A DNA stretch of 64,000 nucleotides from an uncultured Actinomycetes bacterium (GTDB lineage Bacteria > Actinomycetota > Actinomycetes > S36-B12): the NCBI GenBank assembly GCA_963842725.1, contig CAWJHN010000001.1, forward strand, positions 84,447 to 148,446. The letters run 5' to 3'. A program made the translations under genes and the position numbers. The number at the start of each line of letters is the position of its first letter. Position 1 is the first letter of the stretch. Of this stretch, positions 31,065 through 40,107 are shown one piece after another. The notes beneath the pieces are model-generated. The model worked only from the letters and a program-made list of their open reading frames with translations, searched no databases and was not told the origin of the DNA.

Positions 31065-32897
<1,833 letters not shown>

Positions 32898-33028
32898 GAT
32901 GATCCTCGGGTTGGGGGGCGATTTGGGCTGAGGACCAGCCTACGGGTAATCTGGGGCGCTGATTGACCCAGACGTTTCCCGAGCCGGTCCGTGCTCACGA
33001 TGAGTGCGTTCTCAAGAAAGTTGTCCCA

Positions 33029-33289
33029 GTGGCGAACATCAAGTCGCAGATCAAGCGCAACCGCACCAACGAGAAGGCCCGCCAGCGCAACAAGGCGGTC
33101 AAGTCCTCGCTGAAGACCTCGGTGCGCAAGTTCAACGCGGCCGTCGTGGCCGGCGACGCCGCAAAGGCCGACGAGCTGGCTCGCGAGGCCGGTCGCGCGC
33201 TCGACAAGGCAGCCAGCAAGGGCGTCATCCACGCCAACCAGGCCGCCAACCGCAAGTCGGCCATCTCCAAGAAGGTCGCTGCGATCTAG
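33029..33289 (+). CDS. rpsT: 30S ribosomal protein S20
   Basis: GTG at 33029 inside ORF 32963..33289. [23 protein letters not shown] is a canonical S20 N-terminus. Confidence 0.9.
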
Positions 33290-33308
33290 GTTAAGACCTC
33301 GTAAGCAC

Positions 33309-33331
33309 GGCGCCCCTCAAGGAGGGGCGCC
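33309..33331 (+). terminator. Stem-loop terminator after rpsT
   Basis: GGCGCCCCTC-AAG-GAGGGGCGCC (10-bp stem) followed by TTATGCTT, 20 nt after the rpsT stop. Confidence 0.65.
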
Positions 33332-33359
33332 TTATGCTTCCAGCAGGAGGTGTCGCGCC

Positions 33360-33950
33360 ATGCCGAGGATTTCTGCCGCAACCGTTGCCGAGCACCGCGA
33401 ACTGCGTCGGGCCGCCCTGCTCGACGCCGCAGCCGCCCTGATGGTCCGCGGGCGCACCTTCACCGTGGCCGAGGTGGCGAGCGAGGTGGGCCTGTCGCGC
33501 TCAGCCGTCTACGAGTACTACAGCAGTGCGGCCGACCTCATCGCCGACGTCCTCGTCGACGAACTGGCCGACTGGGCCGAGGCGCTTCGATCGGCGACCG
33601 AGTCCGTCGAGGACCCCATGCAGCAGGTCGAGGCCTGGGTCCGCGCCGTCCTGGACTACGTGGCCGAGGGCCATCACGCCCTGGTCCGCGCCGCCGGCAC
33701 CATCGACCTGCCGGCCACCCGCCGGGCCCAGGTCCAGACGATGCACCGCGAGCTCATTGCGCCTCTGCAGGAGGCGCTCACCGCCCTCGGCGATCCCATC
33801 CCCGGCCAGCTCGCCTCCTATGTGTGGGGGGTCGTCGACGCGTCGATCACCCGCATCGAGGCGGCCCGGGTCGACCCCGCCGACGAGGTCACCATGGTGC
33901 TGGAGTTCGTCCGCGGCGGACTCGCCCGGACGCTCGTCACCCTCGACTGA
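33360..33950 (+). CDS. TetR/AcrR-family transcriptional regulator
   Basis: 196-aa ORF with AGGAGG upstream. N-terminal HTH (RAALLDAAAALMVRGRTFTVAEVASEVGLSRSAVYEYYSS). Confidence 0.85.
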   Translation: MPRISAATVAEHRELRRAALLDAAAALMVRGRTFTVAEVASEVGLSRSAVYEYYSSAADLIADVLVDELADWAEALRSATESVEDPMQQVEAWVRAVLDYVAEGHHALVRAAGTIDLPATRRAQVQTMHRELIAPLQEALTALGDPIPGQLASYVWGVVDASITRIEAARVDPADEVTMVLEFVRGGLARTLVTLD

Positions 33951-33990
33951 CGAGACGTACCGCACCTCCGCACCGCAAAGCACTGACGCA

Positions 33991-34035
33991 ACGACGAACG
34001 CCGCCCCGGCCATCAGCCGGGGCGGCGTTCGTCGT
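33991..34035. terminator. Bidirectional 20-bp perfect stem-loop between convergent genes
   Basis: ACGACGAACGCCGCCCCGGC-CATCA-GCCGGGGCGGCGTTCGTCGT, between the tetR-family stop (33950) and the stop of the minus-strand secreted-protein gene (34059). Confidence 0.6.
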
Positions 34036-34058
34036 TGCGGGTGGCCCGCGGTGACCTG

Positions 34059-34850
34059 CTACTTGCGGAGCAGGAACACCTGGGTCTTGACCAGCGGCTT
34101 GAAGTTGCGTCCACCGGTCGAGGTGATGCGCACGATGCAGGTGCCGCGGTCCTTGAGGGCCGTGATCTTGCCATCGGCGATCGAGCAGTTGTCCGCGACG
34201 AGCGACGGGGTCAGGCCCGAGGCCAGCGTCACGGAGAACGGGACGGGCTTGTTCTTCATGAGCTTCGGCTTGGCGCCGTTGGCGACCACCTTGCCGTCGA
34301 GGGTGATCGTGGCGACGTCGGTCTTGCGGTCGGCCCGCACGGGGCTGAACATCGTCGGCCAGATGCGCATGTACGCAGGGTTGGCGGCATCCTTGCCGGC
34401 ACCGAGCACGTACAGGGCGCAGGCAGTGGAGCGCGGGTCACCGGTGCTTGCGCGGCAGTCGACCGAGCCCGGCAGGGCCGTCACGGTCGGATTGGGGTTG
34501 GTGCCCCAGAACTCGCCGTTGACCCGGACCGGGATGGCAAGCGTGGCGCGTGCTGCTGCGTCAGCCGTGACGTACGCGAGCGAGTCGGTGGACGAGTCGC
34601 ACTGGGTCGGGGCCTGGCGGGGGTCGGTCGGAACCTTGCAGTGCAGGACATACAGGCCAACGCCGGCGGGAAGGTTCACCACGTCGACGGTGAGCGTCGA
34701 TGAGGTCGCCAGGTTGACGAGCGGGGTCATGGCGCGCTGGCCGGCGACCGTCGCGTTGTACGGGTCGGCGGCGAGGGCCGGCGTGGCGACGGTTCCTGCC
34801 ACGAGAGCGAATCCGACGGCCGCGACGGCCAAGCGGAGGCTGCGAGTCAT
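34059..34850 (-). CDS. Secreted two-domain beta-rich protein with paired cysteines (Ig-like, uncharacterised)
   Basis: ORF 34059..34865. The preferred start is ATG 34848-34850 (MTRSLRLAVAAVGFALVAGTVATPALA) with AAGGAG 6 nt upstream. Cys pattern GLYVLHCKVP..PTQCDSS...VDCRAS..STACALYVLG, plus a C-terminal module DNCSIADGKITALKDRGTCIVRITS. Confidence 0.7.
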   Translation of the reverse strand: MTRSLRLAVAAVGFALVAGTVATPALAADPYNATVAGQRAMTPLVNLATSSTLTVDVVNLPAGVGLYVLHCKVPTDPRQAPTQCDSSTDSLAYVTADAAARATLAIPVRVNGEFWGTNPNPTVTALPGSVDCRASTGDPRSTACALYVLGAGKDAANPAYMRIWPTMFSPVRADRKTDVATITLDGKVVANGAKPKLMKNKPVPFSVTLASGLTPSLVADNCSIADGKITALKDRGTCIVRITSTGGRNFKPLVKTQVFLLRK

Positions 34851-34877
34851 GCGTATCTCCTTCATTGGTTGGTGTGA

Positions 34878-35441
34878 CTACTGCGGGGCGAAGCGGACGC
34901 GAACGGCCACGTCGGCCGATCGGTTGCCCTCTCGGGTGTGGTCGGCGCGGGTGACGATGGAGCATGAGACGGTTCGGCAGTCGATCGATCCGATGAGGGA
35001 CGAGACCTGCAGCCGGATGGAGAAGCGGCCGCCGCGCTTGAACGGGATGGCGAGCTTCGCGCCGTAGGGCGGCGGGTTCGACGAGATCCACGCCGAGGCG
35101 GGGTTCCGGCCGCTGGTGTTGACGCCACCGCCGCACGGAGAGGGCGCGTGGCCCTTGGTCGGGGTGACGCACAGTGCCACATAGATGCCCACCGTGCGGT
35201 CGAAGCCCTTGCCGGTGATCGCGATCACCTGGCCCGCGGGGTTGAGTCCGCGGACCGGGGTGACGGTCAGCACCTGGCCCGCCCTGGTGGTCGTGGTGCC
35301 GGTGCCCGACGGAGCGGCCTGCGCCGGGACCGCGAGGCCCAGGAGGGCAACGACGCCCAGCAGGCTCACGGCGACGGAGGCGACGGCGGTGCGGCCGCCG
35401 AGGCCTCGAGGCCGGTCCAGGGCACGCGGACGGAAGGTCAC
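34878..35441 (-). CDS. Secreted single-domain beta-rich protein with paired cysteines (neocarzinostatin-apoprotein-like pattern, uncharacterised)
   Basis: Last 187 codons of ORF 34878..36254. GTG at 35439-35441 is tentative. Signal peptide ...LLGVVALLGLAVPAQA. Contains GQVIAITGKGFDRTVGIYVALCVTP..PSPCGGG...WISSNPPPYG...IDCRTVSCSIVTRADH. Confidence 0.65.
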   Translation of the reverse strand: MTFRPRALDRPRGLGGRTAVASVAVSLLGVVALLGLAVPAQAAPSGTGTTTTRAGQVLTVTPVRGLNPAGQVIAITGKGFDRTVGIYVALCVTPTKGHAPSPCGGGVNTSGRNPASAWISSNPPPYGAKLAIPFKRGGRFSIRLQVSSLIGSIDCRTVSCSIVTRADHTREGNRSADVAVRVRFAPQ

Positions 35442-35519
35442 GATCGCACGATATGCCGCGACGCCTGTGGACCGCCCGACACGATGTCGGCGTGATACCG
35501 ACGCAGTATCGGGAACTTC

Positions 35520-36545
35520 GTGGGGAGCGGTGGGGATAATCAGCGGGTGCGACGGCCCAGAGTCCCCCTCCTGCTGGTCGCCGCGACCGTCGTATGCCTG
35601 TCCGGCTGCGCCGGCAACTCCGCCGCCACCGCCACTGCCCCCTCCCCCGGGCAGTCGGTGCCGACGTCCGCGCCGCCCTCGGCCATCCCGGCCGCCCGGT
35701 TCGTGGCCATCACGTCCGCCGACGTCTCGATGCCGCCCATCCCCGCAGTCGAGCTGCCGGCCACCGCCCCGCGTCGCATCGTCAGCCTGGCCAAGGGCGT
35801 CGGCGAGACGCTGGCCGCCCTCGGTGTCGCTCAGTTCGTCGTCGGACGCGACGAGACCAGCGATGCGTCCGAGCTGACCGGTGCCGAGCTGGTCACCAAG
35901 GCCCACTCGGCGAGCGCCGAGAAGGTGCTCTCGCTGTCCCCCGATCTCGTCATCATCGACGCGTCCACCACCCCGCCCGAGGCCGTCAGCCAGATCCGCG
36001 ACGCCGGCGTGCGCGTCGTCGAGGTCCCCGAGGCCTATGCGCTGTCCGACATCGCCGCGCGCACGAACGCCGTCGCGGAGGCGGTCGGGGTGCCGACGCC
36101 GATCGCCGACCTCGTCATCGCCGAGGCAGGCGGGTCCGAGCCGGTGCCGTCGCCGGCAGCGGATGCGCCGACGGTGATGTTCCTGTACGTGCGCGGGACG
36201 TCGGCGATCTACCTGGTAGGCGGCAAGGGATCCGGGGCCGACGACCTCATCCACGCGGCCGGCGGCATCGACGCCGGGGCGGCGGCCGGATACGAGGCCT
36301 ACGTGCCACTGACGGCCGAGGCGGTCGCGACGCTGGACCCCGACGTCATCCTCGTCATGGGCAAGGGCCTGGAGTCTGTGGGCGGCGTCGAGGGCCTGGC
36401 CGGCCTCCCCGGCGTCGCGCAGACGACGGCTGGCCGCGAGGGCCGGGTCATCGCCGTCGACGACACCCTCCTGCTTTCCTTCGGTCCCCGGACGGGCCGG
36501 CTCGTCGATGCCCTGCGCGACGCGATCACGCAGGCCGCCGGCTGA
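35520..36545 (+). CDS. hmuT: Hemin/siderophore-type ABC transporter substrate-binding lipoprotein (class III SBP)
   Basis: 341-aa ORF (alternative start GTG 35547, giving MRRPRVPLLLVAATVVCLSGCAG). Periplasmic-binding-protein type 2 pattern (RIVSLAKGVGETLAALG, PDLVII, DPDVILV). Confidence 0.7.
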   Translation: MGSGGDNQRVRRPRVPLLLVAATVVCLSGCAGNSAATATAPSPGQSVPTSAPPSAIPAARFVAITSADVSMPPIPAVELPATAPRRIVSLAKGVGETLAALGVAQFVVGRDETSDASELTGAELVTKAHSASAEKVLSLSPDLVIIDASTTPPEAVSQIRDAGVRVVEVPEAYALSDIAARTNAVAEAVGVPTPIADLVIAEAGGSEPVPSPAADAPTVMFLYVRGTSAIYLVGGKGSGADDLIHAAGGIDAGAAAGYEAYVPLTAEAVATLDPDVILVMGKGLESVGGVEGLAGLPGVAQTTAGREGRVIAVDDTLLLSFGPRTGRLVDALRDAITQAAG

Positions 36546-37501
36546 TGCGGACGCGCTGGATCCTGCTGGCCGTCATGCTTGCGGGCGTCCTCGCCCTCAG
36601 CGCATCGCTCGCGCTCGAGGTAGGCATCGCGGAATCGTCCGCCGAGATCATCTGGAACATCCGCGCGCCGCGGGTCGTGATGGCCGTCCTGGTCGGCAGC
36701 GGCCTGGCCGTCGCGGGTGCGCTCATGCAGGGCTCGCTGAGCAATCCGCTGGCTGATCCGGGGCTGGTCGGCGTGTCTGCGGGCGCCGCTCTTGGGGCGG
36801 TCGTGGCGGTGGCGCTGGGGGCCACGTTCAGCACCGGGCTCACCTCGCTCGCGGCCTGCCTGGGCGCCGGCATCGCGACCGCGGTCGTGGTCGCCGTGTC
36901 GCTGCGCGAGATGCGGCCCGAGGTCGTGACCCTCCTGCTCGCCGGCGTCGCCGTCACCGCGTTCACCGGAGCCGTGCTCGCGATCATCGTCTCGTTGAGC
37001 ACGTCGGCGGCGGTCCGCTCGATCACCTTCTGGTCCAGTGGCAGCCTGGCGCTGTCCACCTGGAGCGGGGTCCTCTCGGTGGCACCGTTCGTCATCGTCG
37101 GCATGGTCCTGGCGGCCACGACCGCGCGGTCGCTGGACATGCTGTCGCTCGGCGACCGCGGCGCCATGGCTGCCGGGGTCAACGTGGCAACCGTCCGCTA
37201 CCGCTCGCTCGTGGCCGTGGTGCTGCTGGTCGCCGCGGGCGTCGCGACGGTCGGCATGATCGCCTTCGTCGGCCTGCTGATCCCGCACGCGATGCGCATG
37301 GTCGTGGGACCACGGCACGGCCGACTGCTCGCGGTGAGCGCACTCGCCGGCGCGCTCCTGATCCTGCTCGCCGACACCCTTGCCCGCCTGGTGGCCAACC
37401 CCATCGAGATCCCCATCGGAGCCATCACCGCCGTCGTCGGGGCACCGGTCTTCTTCCTCCTTCTGCGCCGGACGCGCGCGCGGCAGGGAGGCTGGGCATG
37501 A
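36545..37501 (+). CDS. hmuU: FecCD-family ABC permease (hemin importer type)
   Basis: ATG at 36545 overlaps the hmuT stop by 1 nt. Contains IRAPRVVMAVLVGSGLAVAGALMQGSLSNPLADPGLVGVSAGA and a C-terminal GAPVFFLLLRR. Confidence 0.8.
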   Translation: MRTRWILLAVMLAGVLALSASLALEVGIAESSAEIIWNIRAPRVVMAVLVGSGLAVAGALMQGSLSNPLADPGLVGVSAGAALGAVVAVALGATFSTGLTSLAACLGAGIATAVVVAVSLREMRPEVVTLLLAGVAVTAFTGAVLAIIVSLSTSAAVRSITFWSSGSLALSTWSGVLSVAPFVIVGMVLAATTARSLDMLSLGDRGAMAAGVNVATVRYRSLVAVVLLVAAGVATVGMIAFVGLLIPHAMRMVVGPRHGRLLAVSALAGALLILLADTLARLVANPIEIPIGAITAVVGAPVFFLLLRRTRARQGGWA

Positions 37502-38256
37502 CCGCGATCGCGTTGCGGGAGGTCTCGGCCGTCACGGACCAGCGCGTCCGGCTCCACCGGACCACCCTGGAGGTCGAGCGGGGAACGGTCACCGGACTCA
37601 TCGGCCGCAACGGCTCGGGCAAGTCGACGATGCTCGCGCTGATCGCCTCGGAGCTGCAGCCGACCACCGGCACCGTCCTCATCAACGGCGACGACATCCA
37701 CGCCCTCAGCCTCACCGAGCGGGCCAGGCGTCGGGCGATCCTCACCCAGGAGACCACGGTGTCGTTCGCCTTCACGGTCCGCGAGGTCGTCGGCTGGGGC
37801 CGCACGCCTTGGCAGCACACGGACCGGGCTGCCGACAACGAGCGGGTCGTCCGTGAGGCGATCACGTCGCAGGGCCTCGACGAGCTCGTCGACCGGCCCG
37901 TCACATCGCTGTCCGGCGGCGAGCGCAAGCGCGTCCACATCGCGCGGGTGCTGGCCCAGCAGGCCGATGTCCTGCTGCTCGACGAGGCGGACTCCGACCT
38001 CGACCTGATCGGCCGGCGCGTGGTCGACGACCTGGTGGTCGAGCATGCACGGCGGGGGCACACCGCGGTCGTGGTGAGCCATGACCTCAGCCGGCTGGCG
38101 CGCGTCTGCGACCGGTTCATCCTCATGCATGCCGGCCGCGTGTACGCGCTCGGCACTCCCGACGAGGTGCTGACCGACGAGGTGCTCAGTGCCGCGTTCG
38201 AGGCGCGGGTCGCGGTGACAGGCGAGGGCGACTCGCTCACGATCCACGTCCCGTAA
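37498..38256 (+). CDS. hmuV: Hemin-importer-type ABC ATP-binding protein
   Basis: 252-aa ORF with an ATGA overlap onto hmuU. Walker A GRNGSGKST, LSGGERKRV, LLLDEA, and the HmuV-like ERARRRAILTQE...FTVREVVGWGRTPW. Confidence 0.8.
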   Translation: MTAIALREVSAVTDQRVRLHRTTLEVERGTVTGLIGRNGSGKSTMLALIASELQPTTGTVLINGDDIHALSLTERARRRAILTQETTVSFAFTVREVVGWGRTPWQHTDRAADNERVVREAITSQGLDELVDRPVTSLSGGERKRVHIARVLAQQADVLLLDEADSDLDLIGRRVVDDLVVEHARRGHTAVVVSHDLSRLARVCDRFILMHAGRVYALGTPDEVLTDEVLSAAFEARVAVTGEGDSLTIHVP

Positions 38257-38287
38257 GGGTCGCGGCGGACCGCCGACCGCACGGCGC

Positions 38288-39289
38288 CTAGCGCCCGTTG
38301 CCCGCCGACGTCGCAGCGACGAGGATCTCCAGGGCCAGCAGCTTCTGCTCGGGATCCAGGCTCGAGCCCTCGAGGACGCCGCCCTTCATGGCCCCGTCCG
38401 CCTCGGCCAGGGCGACCGCGGCTGCGGCGAGGCGGCGCTGGTCACCGCTCCACTTCGCCCATTGGCGACGCAGGGCCTCGACCTTCCAGGGCGGCACGCC
38501 CGCCTCCTTGGCGACGACCGCCGGCGAGGTGCCCGGTGGCATGCCGCCCACCCGGACCAGGGACCGCAGCCCGGTGGCGAGTGCCGAGATGGTGGCCGGA
38601 CCCACCGAGCCCTGGTCGTTGGCCAGCATCGACTGCCGAAGCGACTTCATGGCGTCGACGTACCTGCGGCTCCAGACGGCGTCGGCGATCGTGAAGCCGG
38701 ACACGTCGGCAACCCCCTCGAAGTAGTCGCGCACGTCGGCCATGTCGATGGGGTTGGCCTCGACGTCGCTGACCAGCTGCGAGACGGCTCCGGCCAGCAG
38801 GCCGAGGTCGTGGCCGATCGACTCGTAGAGGGCCACCAGCGCCTCGTTGGTGGCCCTGCGCTTGTGCGCGGCGAACTCCCGCCCGAGGAAGGCGAGGGTG
38901 TCCTTGCCCTTCTTGATGGCCTGGCAGTCGACCTGCTCGGCCCCCGCAGCGCGGAGCGCGTCGAGCAGGGCCTTGCCCTTCACGCCACCGGGGTGCGTGA
39001 CGACCAGGAACGTGCCGTCGGGCAGGTCCGCGACGACCTCACGCAGCGCCTTGCTGAACGCCTCGTCGGCATCGTCGACATCGGTGACGACCACGACGCC
39101 GCCATCGCCGAAGAGGTTCGGCGCGGTGGCCTCGCGGAGTGAATGGGCTGCGCCCTCCTCGCCGGCGTCGATGACGTACTTCGACACAGTGGGATCCGCC
39201 CGGCGCGCCGACGTCGACACGCTGCGCACGGCCCGATCGACGAGGACCGTCTCCGAGCCCACGATCAGCGTGATACGAGGGATCGACAT
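38288..39289 (-). CDS. holA: DNA polymerase III subunit delta
   Basis: ORF 38288..39391, with the start at ATG 39287-39289 (MSIPRITLIVGSETVLVDRAV). Length is 333 aa and the position next to comEC is typical. Confidence 0.8.
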   Translation of the reverse strand: MSIPRITLIVGSETVLVDRAVRSVSTSARRADPTVSKYVIDAGEEGAAHSLREATAPNLFGDGGVVVVTDVDDADEAFSKALREVVADLPDGTFLVVTHPGGVKGKALLDALRAAGAEQVDCQAIKKGKDTLAFLGREFAAHKRRATNEALVALYESIGHDLGLLAGAVSQLVSDVEANPIDMADVRDYFEGVADVSGFTIADAVWSRRYVDAMKSLRQSMLANDQGSVGPATISALATGLRSLVRVGGMPPGTSPAVVAKEAGVPPWKVEALRRQWAKWSGDQRRLAAAAVALAEADGAMKGGVLEGSSLDPEQKLLALEILVAATSAGNGR

Positions 39290-39441
39290 GATGACGCAGC
39301 ATGCCATGCCGGACCCACGTCGCGACGCCCGGTGCGCCGCCGGCCCGGCATCCCCTGAGGACTCGGGATCTCGTCCGCACTCGCGTGGCAACGACGTGGC
39401 CGCCGCCGCTAGGTTCGTGGCAACCGAGGAGAGGAACGACG

Positions 39442-40107
39442 ATGGGGCTTGGACGTGTGGTAGCCGGTGCGGCTGCGGGACTGATCATGCTCGGGGTGTC
39501 CTTCGGGGCAGCACCGTCGGCGTGGGCGGGAACGACCGGATGGTCGGGGACGTTGGGAGCGGACCCGATCCTCGCGTTGGCATCTACCGGGAGCACGTGC
39601 CTTCCGCCCGGAACGAATGGTCGCGCCTACCACGTCCAGCCGTTCACGGTCAGCGAGTCCGGCTCCTACGACCTGTCGATCGTGAGCGCTGCAGGCATGC
39701 CCGTCGACGCCCTGGACACCATGCATGCGGTGTACGAGAACTCGTTCGATCCGGCCAACTGGACCCTCAACTGCATCGCGTACAACGACGACAACGGCGC
39801 CGGCGTCCTGTCCATCACCGCCGACGTGCCGCTCGTTGCCGGCACGCAGTACTTCGTGGTCGTCATGAACGCATGGGTCGGCATGCCGGTCGGCGCGACC
39901 TTCAGCGGCGAGATCACCGGCCCAGGGACGATTTCCACGGGTCTTGGAACCGGGTCGGGGACTCCCGTTCCCGAATGGGTCCAGGGCTACGGACGGGGCA
40001 GCGCATCCGATGCCTGCCGCGACGGGTGGTCGGCGAGCTGGGCGCTGTGGCCCAATGACGGCACGGGTGGCTGGGTCTGCACTCGCACCGTCCCGTCATT
40101 GGGGTAG
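39442..40107 (+). CDS. Secreted protein: PPC-like (pre-peptidase C-terminal-like) beta-sandwich plus a Trp/Cys-rich C-terminal module
   Basis: ATG at 39442 within ORF 39301..40107, with GAGGAGAGGA upstream. Signal peptide ...FGAAPSAWA. Contains YHVQPFTVSESGSYDLSI...DTMHAVYENSFDP..NCIAYNDDNG...TQYFVVV. The C-terminus is ACRDGWSASWALWPNDGTGGWVCTRT. GC is lower than in the flanks. Confidence 0.65.
   Translation: MGLGRVVAGAAAGLIMLGVSFGAAPSAWAGTTGWSGTLGADPILALASTGSTCLPPGTNGRAYHVQPFTVSESGSYDLSIVSAAGMPVDALDTMHAVYENSFDPANWTLNCIAYNDDNGAGVLSITADVPLVAGTQYFVVVMNAWVGMPVGATFSGEITGPGTISTGLGTGSGTPVPEWVQGYGRGSASDACRDGWSASWALWPNDGTGGWVCTRTVPSLG

Follow-up and report, generated by a model that had tools for sequence, protein, structure and literature searches.

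What do two small, disulfide-rich secreted proteins do beside an ABC importer? The question is raised by a locus in a 64,000-nucleotide (nt) stretch of DNA from an uncultured Actinomycetes bacterium (GTDB lineage S36-B12; assembly GCA_963842725.1, contig CAWJHN010000001.1, positions 84,447 to 148,446), which we refer to as the window. Two minus-strand genes, here called A (34878..35441, 187 amino acids) and B (34059..34850, 263 amino acids), are transcribed divergently from the importer genes hmuT, hmuU, and hmuV. Gene A encodes a secreted single-domain protein with the predicted fold of neocarzinostatin (NCS), and gene B a secreted two-domain protein. Two domain families are currently credited with Gram-positive heme capture: NEAT proteins in Firmicutes and HtaA/CR proteins in Corynebacterium. 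We find that A and B match neither of these and that they probably represent an undescribed family of heme-capture proteins; that they bind heme we infer from their fold, their genomic company, and the architectures of their relatives. We class the domain family as new and its probable role, Gram-positive heme capture, as a known one.

The original prediction, made from the letters of the window, had likened the cysteine spacing of both proteins to the immunoglobulin (Ig)-like fold of the NCS apoproteins and had taken them to be neither HtaA nor NEAT proteins. Both suggestions held up in profile and structure searches. The sole Pfam match of each protein is to the NCS family PF00960 (A, 18.5 bits, E 2e-3; B, 16.6 bits, E 8e-3; cutoff 25), and the sole NCBIfam match of each is to NF040680 (A, 25.9 bits, E 7e-6; B, 30.3 bits, E 3e-7; cutoff 86); neither protein reaches the curated cutoff for membership in either family. 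Other A-like relatives clear PF00960 (P0241 with 54 bits, P0277 with 62 bits), and 33 of 105 A-like representatives match it at E ≤ 1e-3. In the same Pfam search neither A nor B matched PF04213 (HtaA) or PF05031 (NEAT) at E ≤ 1, which rules out membership in those families; the method does find HtaA in a Streptomyces neighbor gene (29 bits) and in the relative P0362 (158 bits).

AlphaFold (AF2) models built from family alignments reached a predicted local distance difference test (pLDDT) score of 85.2 for A and 86.8 for B. When the model of A was compared with the PDB by Foldseek, the five significant matches were macromomycin, two NCS variants, apo-C1027, and NCS itself (E 1e-5 to 4e-4; target-normalized template modeling [TM] score, 0.64-0.72). 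The model of B divides into an N-terminal NCS-fold domain (residues ∼30-165), which retrieves apo-C1027, macromomycin, NCS, and apokedarcidin, and a C-terminal Ig-like domain (∼175-263); this second domain, like B searched whole, yields generic tandem-Ig matches. Taken over both proteins, the top PDB matches (2mcm, 2cbq, 1j48, 1nco, 1hzk, and 1akp) have E-values of 1e-5 to 7e-4 and target TM scores of 0.56-0.74. An alignment of B with macromomycin places C71 and C84 on the first macromomycin cysteine pair and C132 on the first cysteine of the second pair, and in an alignment of A with ThiX, a protein of Corynebacterium glutamicum to which we return below, both cysteine pairs coincide. Because the subthreshold family matches, the AlphaFold and Foldseek results, and the placement of both NCS disulfides agree, we conclude that an NCS-like Ig-like β-sandwich fold is predicted both for A and for the N-terminal domain of B.

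The two proteins share a pair of motifs, as the original prediction had noticed, and its residues are strongly conserved. In A these are G-I-Y87-V-A-L-C91 ... C103, followed by D154-C155 ... C160; in B they are G-L-Y67-V-L-H-C71 ... C84, followed by D131-C132 ... C144. The corresponding disulfide pairs are C91-C103 and C155-C160 in A, and C71-C84 and C132-C144 in the N-terminal domain of B. Y87, C91, C103, D154, C155, and C160 are invariant in 46 aligned homologs of A. Among 54 aligned homologs of B, the same is true of Y67, C71, C84, C132, and C144, with D131 nearly so, and also of C222 and C238, the disulfide pair of the C-terminal domain, in keeping with the earlier recognition of a second cysteine-paired module in the larger protein. 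A profile-profile comparison (hhalign) aligns A with the N-terminal domain of B at E 2.6e-5 and a probability of 75%, both cysteine pairs being in register; judged from these profiles, the two are distant paralogs. Protein A carries in addition a conserved insertion of ∼20 residues (GGGVN...S-A-W118-I-S-S-N-P-P-P-Y126-G) and, after the second disulfide, the invariant motif T-R165-A-D167-H168-T. The family signature of A can thus be written GIYVALC...PSPCGGG...AWISSNPPPYG...DCR..SCSIVTRADHTR.

The family is large and widely distributed. In a collection of 5.8 billion proteins we found 492 homologs of A and 155 of B, often on shared contigs and all unnamed or labeled "hypothetical"; the closest records come from unclassified Actinomycetes metagenome-assembled genomes (MAGs). 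When 1.84 billion cluster representatives were searched by profile, 764 relatives emerged (255 at E ≤ 1e-30), many of them multidomain or tandem proteins with up to six matched stretches. Across the 105 divergent representatives, a Gly, a Phe, the Asp-Cys pair, a further Cys, and the Asp-His pair are invariant, and the Tyr, Trp, and Arg are nearly so. A scan of species-representative genomes gave at least 582 loci, including Nanopelagicales (acI), Candidatus Planktophila, Streptomyces, and many unclassified Actinomycetota MAGs. At eight Planktophila-type loci (L055, L062, L064, L065, L070, L072, L077, and L079), gene B is replaced by another second gene that matches A and B weakly (23%-31% identity), so the partner of A differs among clades.

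The importer beside A and B is of the heme type. HmuT (35520..36545, plus strand) is a lipoprotein (lipobox LSGC) and a class III substrate-binding protein (SBP; Peripla_BP_2, 93.6 bits); HmuU (36542..37501, plus strand) is a FecCD-family permease (PF01032, 275.7 bits, with NCBIfam matches of the BtuC/FhuB/FecCD type); and HmuV (37498..38256, plus strand) is an ABC ATPase (ABC_tran, 113 bits). With all three domains present, and with NF010068, the heme ABC transporter ATP-binding protein, as the best NCBIfam match of HmuV though below cutoff (221 bits, cutoff 261), the earlier assignment of these genes as hmuTUV is sustained. Every one of the closest solved relatives of HmuT is a heme SBP: RhuT (5gj3, 5e-46) and the HmuT of C. 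glutamicum (CgHmuT; 5az3, 4e-41) lead, further matches include BhuT, Yersinia HmuT, ShuT, PhuT, and HutB, and the heme set extends down to E 4e-16. The B12 binder BtuF matches at E 1e-5 only. HmuT residues His129, Tyr223, and Arg225 (the latter two in the segment F-L-Y223-V-R225-G) align to His141, Tyr240, and Arg242 of CgHmuT, which are the heme axial ligands and their hydrogen-bond partner (PMC4926363). This His/Tyr/Arg triad is kept in the neighboring HmuT homologs (74 of 74, 71 of 72, and 72 of 72, respectively). Since the solved relatives are uniformly heme SBPs and the CgHmuT triad is retained, HmuT is, as far as homology can tell, a heme-type binding protein and the importer heme-type. 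An Rfam search of positions 32500-39500 found no cobalamin or other riboswitch. As a separate observation, the hmuT homolog at one locus (L011, 7721-8514) was recovered in two tblastn pieces with a stop codon where the Tyr heme ligand should be, and is either a pseudogene or an assembly error.

We next consider how consistently A-like genes accompany hmuT. Two samples were used: the best-scoring 80 of the at least 582 genome loci, 74 of them with enough upstream sequence, and, as an independent sample with patterns drawn from a more divergent A-like subfamily, the best-scoring 80 of 184 metagenome matches. A HmuT homolog lies within 1.5 kb of the A-like gene in 71 of the 74 genome loci; of the other three, two have the genes separated by a 1.66-kb insertion and one, from Streptomyces, has no hmuT. 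In the metagenome sample, all 28 loci that have at least 2.5 kb on both sides carry hmuT no more than 1.4 kb from an A-like domain. The original prediction had made its case depend on homologs lying near hmu loci, and both samples bear it out decisively. The window's own chromosomal setting, between holA and rpsT/lepA, recurs in only 20 of the 80 genome loci, so the linkage is not a matter of inherited chromosomal position.

The linkage also persists through rearrangement. We observe five gene orders: hmuVUT divergent from A-B, with a TetR gene converging on B (this window and L142); A, hmuT, hmuU, and hmuV all in the same direction (L099 and L112); A-like genes at both ends of the importer, preceding hmuT and following hmuV (L097); A-like genes set in the middle, separating hmuT from hmuU (L139); and hmuT divergent from A, which is followed by HtaA and then by more A-like domains (L137, Streptomyces). 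Conservation through five orders is the signature of a functional unit. Two observations on individual loci may be added. The 1.66-kb insertion between hmuT and A (L012, 8330-9986, and similarly L014) contains open reading frames (ORFs) of 152 and 340 amino acids and occurs in Nanopelagicales-type MAGs. The record titles "Bifidobacterium breve" (L011, L014, L037, and L054) and "Rubrivirga sp." (L050 and L081) look taxonomically wrong for these MAG contigs, the gene content and synteny of the loci (holA, hmuVUT, A, B, TetR, rpsT, lepA) fitting Nanopelagicales-like loci.

In other lineages, A-like domains occur in architectures that resemble those of surface receptors. One example is the L061 locus of Streptomyces sp. 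MMG1533, with three genes of interest. The first diverges from hmuT, and its product combines a signal peptide, an A-like domain, a Ser/Thr/Gly linker, a LATTG sortase signal, a transmembrane segment, and an Arg tail; the product of the second has an HtaA domain (29 bits, which exceeds the threshold); and the third, of ∼870 residues, has an A-like domain at either end, an Ig I-set domain, and a LASTG sortase signal. This layout, with LAxTG-bearing A-like proteins flanking an HtaA protein beside hmuT, is found in six of seven Streptomyces loci. Tandem arrays of four to six domains with sortase signals also occur, P0241 for instance having four NCS-like domains and LASTG. The signal-like N termini of A and B and the LAxTG signals, transmembrane anchors, or lipoboxes of their relatives all place the family outside the cytoplasm. 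With members that are free or attached by lipid, transmembrane segment, or sortase, and with one to several domain copies, the family is by analogy reminiscent of the NEAT and HtaA receptors.

In four independent cluster representatives (P0249, P0305, P0311, and P0337), a stop-free frame runs from one or more A-like domains into HmuT, in the order signal, A-like domain(s), linker, transmembrane segment, Arg-rich loop, lipobox-like segment, HmuT. In P0362, an HtaA domain (158 bits) with an LARTG signal and a transmembrane segment is in frame with a signal-like segment, an A-like domain, and a further transmembrane segment, and in P0244 a DUF2470 domain is in frame with two A-like domains. Simple domain fusions with HtaA, HmuT, or DUF2470 were set aside as an explanation, as anchor- or signal-like segments remain between the parts. 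We treat all six, going by these segments, as polyproteins or immediate in-frame neighbors; the long frames may be polyproteins that sortase or signal peptidase II would cleave, or they may result from gene calling that merged neighbors in high-GC DNA, where stops are few. Polyprotein or not, in-frame adjacency shows very tight coupling.

Comparison with known systems brings out what is shared and what is peculiar to A and B. The enediyne apoproteins (neocarzinostatin, macromomycin, CagA of C-1027, and kedarcidin; PF00960/NF040680) are likewise Sec-secreted, have ∼110-150 residues, and share with A and B the Ig-like β-sandwich with two disulfides at homologous positions; their fold is known for accommodating a hydrophobic small molecule within a cleft. 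Unlike them, A has the ∼20-residue insertion and the invariant TR-x-DH motif, A and B score below the family thresholds and are encoded with heme importers, and the relatives of A form tandem modules anchored by sortase, transmembrane segments, or lipid. ThiX of C. glutamicum ("thiamine biosynthesis protein X"; 7QHM/7QHO, 7qhm chain M, flagged PF00960) is the only solved-structure entry that matches the A profile (E 3e-8). Within the bcc-aa3 respiratory supercomplex it is an accessory lipoprotein, with a soluble domain that is unresolved and a function that is unknown (PMC8795186). ThiX and A have in common the cysteine pairs, the GxY..C motif, the Asp-His motif, and an extracytoplasmic site, but thiX is a stand-alone gene away from transporters and its product lacks the WISSNPPPYG insertion. 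Its neighbors are aceA in C. suranareeae (L083, 8001-8576) and dnaG in C. diphtheriae (L084, 8001-8558), and as a clue to uptake this genomic context is uninformative.

The HtaA, HtaB, and ChtA proteins of Corynebacterium, with their CR domains (PF04213), resemble A and B in being secreted or envelope-anchored and encoded with hmuTUV in Actinobacteria; HtaA, moreover, co-occurs with A-like proteins in Streptomyces-type loci and stands in frame with one in P0362. Unlike HtaA, A and B have no PF04213 match, and no HtaA structure is among the top 50 Foldseek matches. Heme binding by CR domains has been demonstrated (PMC12494546), whereas for A and B it is deduced. Likeness to the NEAT proteins of the Isd systems of Firmicutes (PF05031) lies in Ig-like β-sandwich modules in single to tandem copies, in the frequent sortase anchoring of A relatives, and in linkage to an importer composed of a heme-type class III SBP, a FecCD permease, and an ATPase; A and B differ from them in having NCS-type disulfides, no YxxxY signature, and no PF05031 match, and in belonging to the Actinomycetota. 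Finally, CwpG of Actinoplanes missouriensis, a class E sortase-dependent cell-wall protein with an NCS-like domain (IPR002186), is described by domain annotation only, with no mention of heme or HtaA (PMC13251363); its architecture, as annotated, is that of the Streptomyces LAxTG A-like proteins. In the literature library that we searched, no paper links the NCS fold, PF00960, or IPR002186 with heme.

The NCS fold, the heme-type HmuT, the linkage to hmuT, the receptor-like architectures, the co-occurrence with HtaA, and the ecology of acI bacteria together lead us to favor, as somewhat better than evenly balanced, the view that A and B are secreted NCS-fold extracytoplasmic components dedicated to heme uptake through HmuTUV. 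As to that ecology, A-like relatives are present in MAGs of Nanopelagicales (acI) and Planktophila. Strains of acI are heme auxotrophs; 10 pM hemin suffices for growth of the strain that has a hemTUV-like cluster, the strain without it needs at least 100 pM, and the authors of that study called for characterization of acI heme uptake (bioRxiv 10.1101/2021.01.11.426183). In the mechanism that we propose, A and B would be exported by Sec and oxidized to two disulfides per NCS domain. An A-type domain would then take free heme, or heme leaked from hemoproteins, into a cleft equivalent to the NCS chromophore site, where the invariant Tyr87, Trp118, Tyr126, Arg165, Asp167, and His168 may line or ligate the pocket and a Tyr and/or His could serve as axial ligand. 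Heme would be handed to the His/Tyr-ligating lipoprotein HmuT, which would dock on HmuUV for ATP-driven import. B, a divergent paralog with an added Ig-like domain, may act as a second relay or as a receptor partner, possibly for hemoproteins.

Several observations weigh against this reading. B is without the Asp-His motif that figures in the proposed pocket of A, where the TR-A-DH segment would lie near the NCS chromophore cleft. The linkage counts rest on best-scoring loci (80 of 582 and 80 of 184), one Streptomyces locus (L078) has A-like domains with hmuT not within 10 kb, and the fact that ThiX is encoded away from any transporter means that the wider superfamily is not exclusively tied to uptake. 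The presence of an HtaA protein in Streptomyces as well would allow the A-like domain to be an accessory and not a heme binder. Lastly, A and B look unanchored and would thus act as free hemophores, which seems costly for a planktonic cell.

The point about HtaA leads to the main rival, which we consider unlikely: A and B would belong to the heme-uptake system without binding heme, as hemoprotein receptors or as scaffolds that place HmuT or HtaA, heme being held solely by HtaA-type proteins and HmuT. Besides the company of HtaA in Streptomyces-type loci, this would suit the extra Ig-like domain of B, which is typical of protein-protein modules, and the occurrence of A-like domains in large multidomain surface proteins with Ig I-set and propeller-like regions. 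However, the clade of the window and most loci keep A though no HtaA gene is nearby, the NCS fold is that of a small-molecule carrier, and the Tyr, Trp, Asp-His, and Arg conserved over 105 divergent representatives look like a ligand site and not like a variable protein interface. If a ligand is carried, it might be another ligand of the same transporter: a metal-free porphyrin, a corrinoid or other tetrapyrrole, or a metallophore. HmuU scores best against BtuC models, HmuV falls under the heme equivalog cutoff, and the NCS fold has been re-engineered for unrelated hydrophobic ligands (a testosterone-binding NCS is among the Foldseek matches), but HmuT fits heme SBPs better than it does BtuF, by 20-40 orders of magnitude, essentially all neighboring HmuT proteins keep the heme axial ligands, the region has no cobalamin riboswitch, and the family co-occurs with the heme-binding HtaA domain; we regard this alternative as improbable.

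Slightly more improbable still is a role in buffering or processing extracellular heme, that is, sequestration against toxicity or holding heme for reduction or iron release. Heme at high concentration is toxic to acI strains (bioRxiv 10.1101/2021.01.11.426183), the invariant Asp-His pair could also serve catalysis, and ThiX sits on a heme-rich redox complex; yet the genes lie within importer operons and not in exporter or detoxification operons, the tandem anchored arrays resemble relay receptors, and, save for the one DUF2470 adjacency, no oxidoreductase or heme-degrading domain is seen joined to them. That A and B are unrelated secreted Ig-like or adhesin proteins that happen to adjoin hmuTUV would be suggested by the conserved housekeeping position of the block (holA ... 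rpsT-lepA) in the nearest relatives, but this idea is effectively refuted by a linkage kept in 60 of 80 genome loci without those housekeeping neighbors and over five gene orders, some with the A-like gene inserted between hmuT and hmuU or joined to hmuT in frame. We give almost no credence to the idea that A and B are true apoproteins of enediyne antibiotics, with a chromophore that they would carry for its export or for protection of the producer. Enediyne chromoproteins are indeed their top HMM (hidden Markov model) and fold matches, but the NF040680 scores are 26-30 bits against an equivalog cutoff of 86, and the WISSNPPPYG and TRADH motifs are missing from macromomycin in the alignment. 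In relatives as in the window, the genes are surrounded by housekeeping and transport genes (hmuTUV, TetR, rpsT, lepA, hemW, holA, and comEC), with no polyketide synthase and no enediyne cluster nearby, and the family occurs in Nanopelagicales/Planktophila MAGs, a lineage with streamlined genomes of <1.5 Mbp (PMC12817590).

The layout of the two genes in the window agrees with the earlier description throughout. Gene A begins with GTG, the earliest start possible in its frame, and ends with a TAG stop at 34880-34878. A spacer of 27 nt, an operon junction, separates it from gene B and contains the ribosome-binding site AAGGAG (34857..34862, minus strand; read from the sequence), 6 nt before the ATG of B; an alternative ATG at 34865 is without a ribosome-binding site. 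The divergent spacer between A and hmuT measures 78 bp (35442-35519), hmuT starting at 35520. The block is flanked by holA and comEC on one side and by rpsT, lepA, and hemW on the other. Signal peptides, claimed for both products, were recognized by eye as signal-peptide-like N termini (A, residues ∼1-42, AVPAQA|APSG; B, residues ∼1-27, TPALA|ADPY). Reading both sequences by eye, we saw no lipobox, sortase signal, or C-terminal transmembrane segment, and the A and B of the window therefore look released rather than surface-anchored, anchors being known in other lineages. The idea of surface proteins feeding the Hmu transporter is supported within the reach of computation: the linkage to hmuT and the heme-type importer speak for it, and only the attachment to the surface does not fit these two putative heme binders.

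The low GC content once reported for A and B (spot counts of 62%-68%) does not extend to the whole genes, which have 72.7% and 68.8% in a window of 71.2%. Their GC at third codon positions (GC3; A, 0.91; B, 0.905) is like that of their neighbors (0.88-0.97) and so provides no compositional mark of foreign origin, which we rule out on this measure; lepA (67.3% GC) and rpsT (64.2%) lie below both. Elsewhere in the block, an ORF between holA and comEC (39301-40107, plus strand, 268 amino acids) has an internal signal-peptide-like segment (VSFGAAPSAWA), a Cys/Trp-containing C terminus, and a GC3 of 0.81, its neighbors having 0.88-0.92.

The divergent spacer contains a composite palindromic operator-like site, CCGACacgatGTCGGcgtgataCCGAC (plus strand, 35476..35502), which is upstream of both genes, at 18-44 bp from hmuT and 35-61 bp from A. 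Of 65 related loci, 45 have its core, GTCGG-N6-7-CCGAC, in their A/hmuT spacer, where a CCGAC-N5-GTCGG frequently overlaps it; the core is ∼150-fold denser there than in the rest of those loci (3.24 versus 0.022 per kb). A TetR-family regulator gene (33360..33950, plus strand; TetR_N, 26.8 bits) converges on gene B and accompanies the module in 51 of 80 genome loci, which makes its product a candidate regulator of the spacer. The core is missing from those Planktophila-type loci in which TetR shares just 35%-41% identity. The site is also present without an adjacent TetR at seven loci (L002, L005, L007, L009, L035, L042, and L060), so TetR is a putative regulator only. Against solved structures the TetR protein had no close relative and no HrtR match, and relatives of the HrrR/HrtR type were not found.

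No IdeR/DmdR iron box with three or fewer mismatches occurs anywhere in the window. The operator-like site, not being an iron box, would fit control by something besides iron status; in our proposal the divergent promoters would be controlled via GTCGG-N7-CCGAC by a regulator of other than the iron-box type. Scans of 33900-35600 for sigma-70 promoters and intrinsic terminators found nothing and are uninformative in an actinobacterium of 71% GC. Where gene B and TetR converge, their ends are separated by a hairpin with a perfect 25-bp stem (33987..34039) and no T-run; it folds as RNA at -63.1 kcal/mol (z = -7.3) and is likely a bidirectional transcript end. Two weak Rfam matches (mir-3150 and ctRNA_pGA1) fall on this hairpin and were discarded as spurious.

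More broadly, and tentatively, since we hold it to be somewhat less than an even prospect, the A-like NCS-fold domain may be a third, Actinobacteria-wide heme receptor or hemophore family beside NEAT and HtaA/CR, forming the extracellular front end of heme uptake in heme-auxotrophic freshwater acI/Nanopelagicales, with the enediyne apoproteins and ThiX as offshoots of an older ligand-carrier family. The underlying heme-capture hypothesis is directly testable, the two proteins being small and easily expressed. If it is true, there would be a third heme-capture family, built on the neocarzinostatin carrier fold and spread across hundreds of actinobacterial species, and many proteins now called "hypothetical" or "neocarzinostatin family" (764 cluster representatives) would gain a function. 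The family would supply a hint at the origin of the enediyne apoproteins and a lead on the role of ThiX in the corynebacterial respiratory supercomplex, and it would offer candidates for the picomolar heme uptake of the abundant heme-auxotrophic Nanopelagicales of fresh water.

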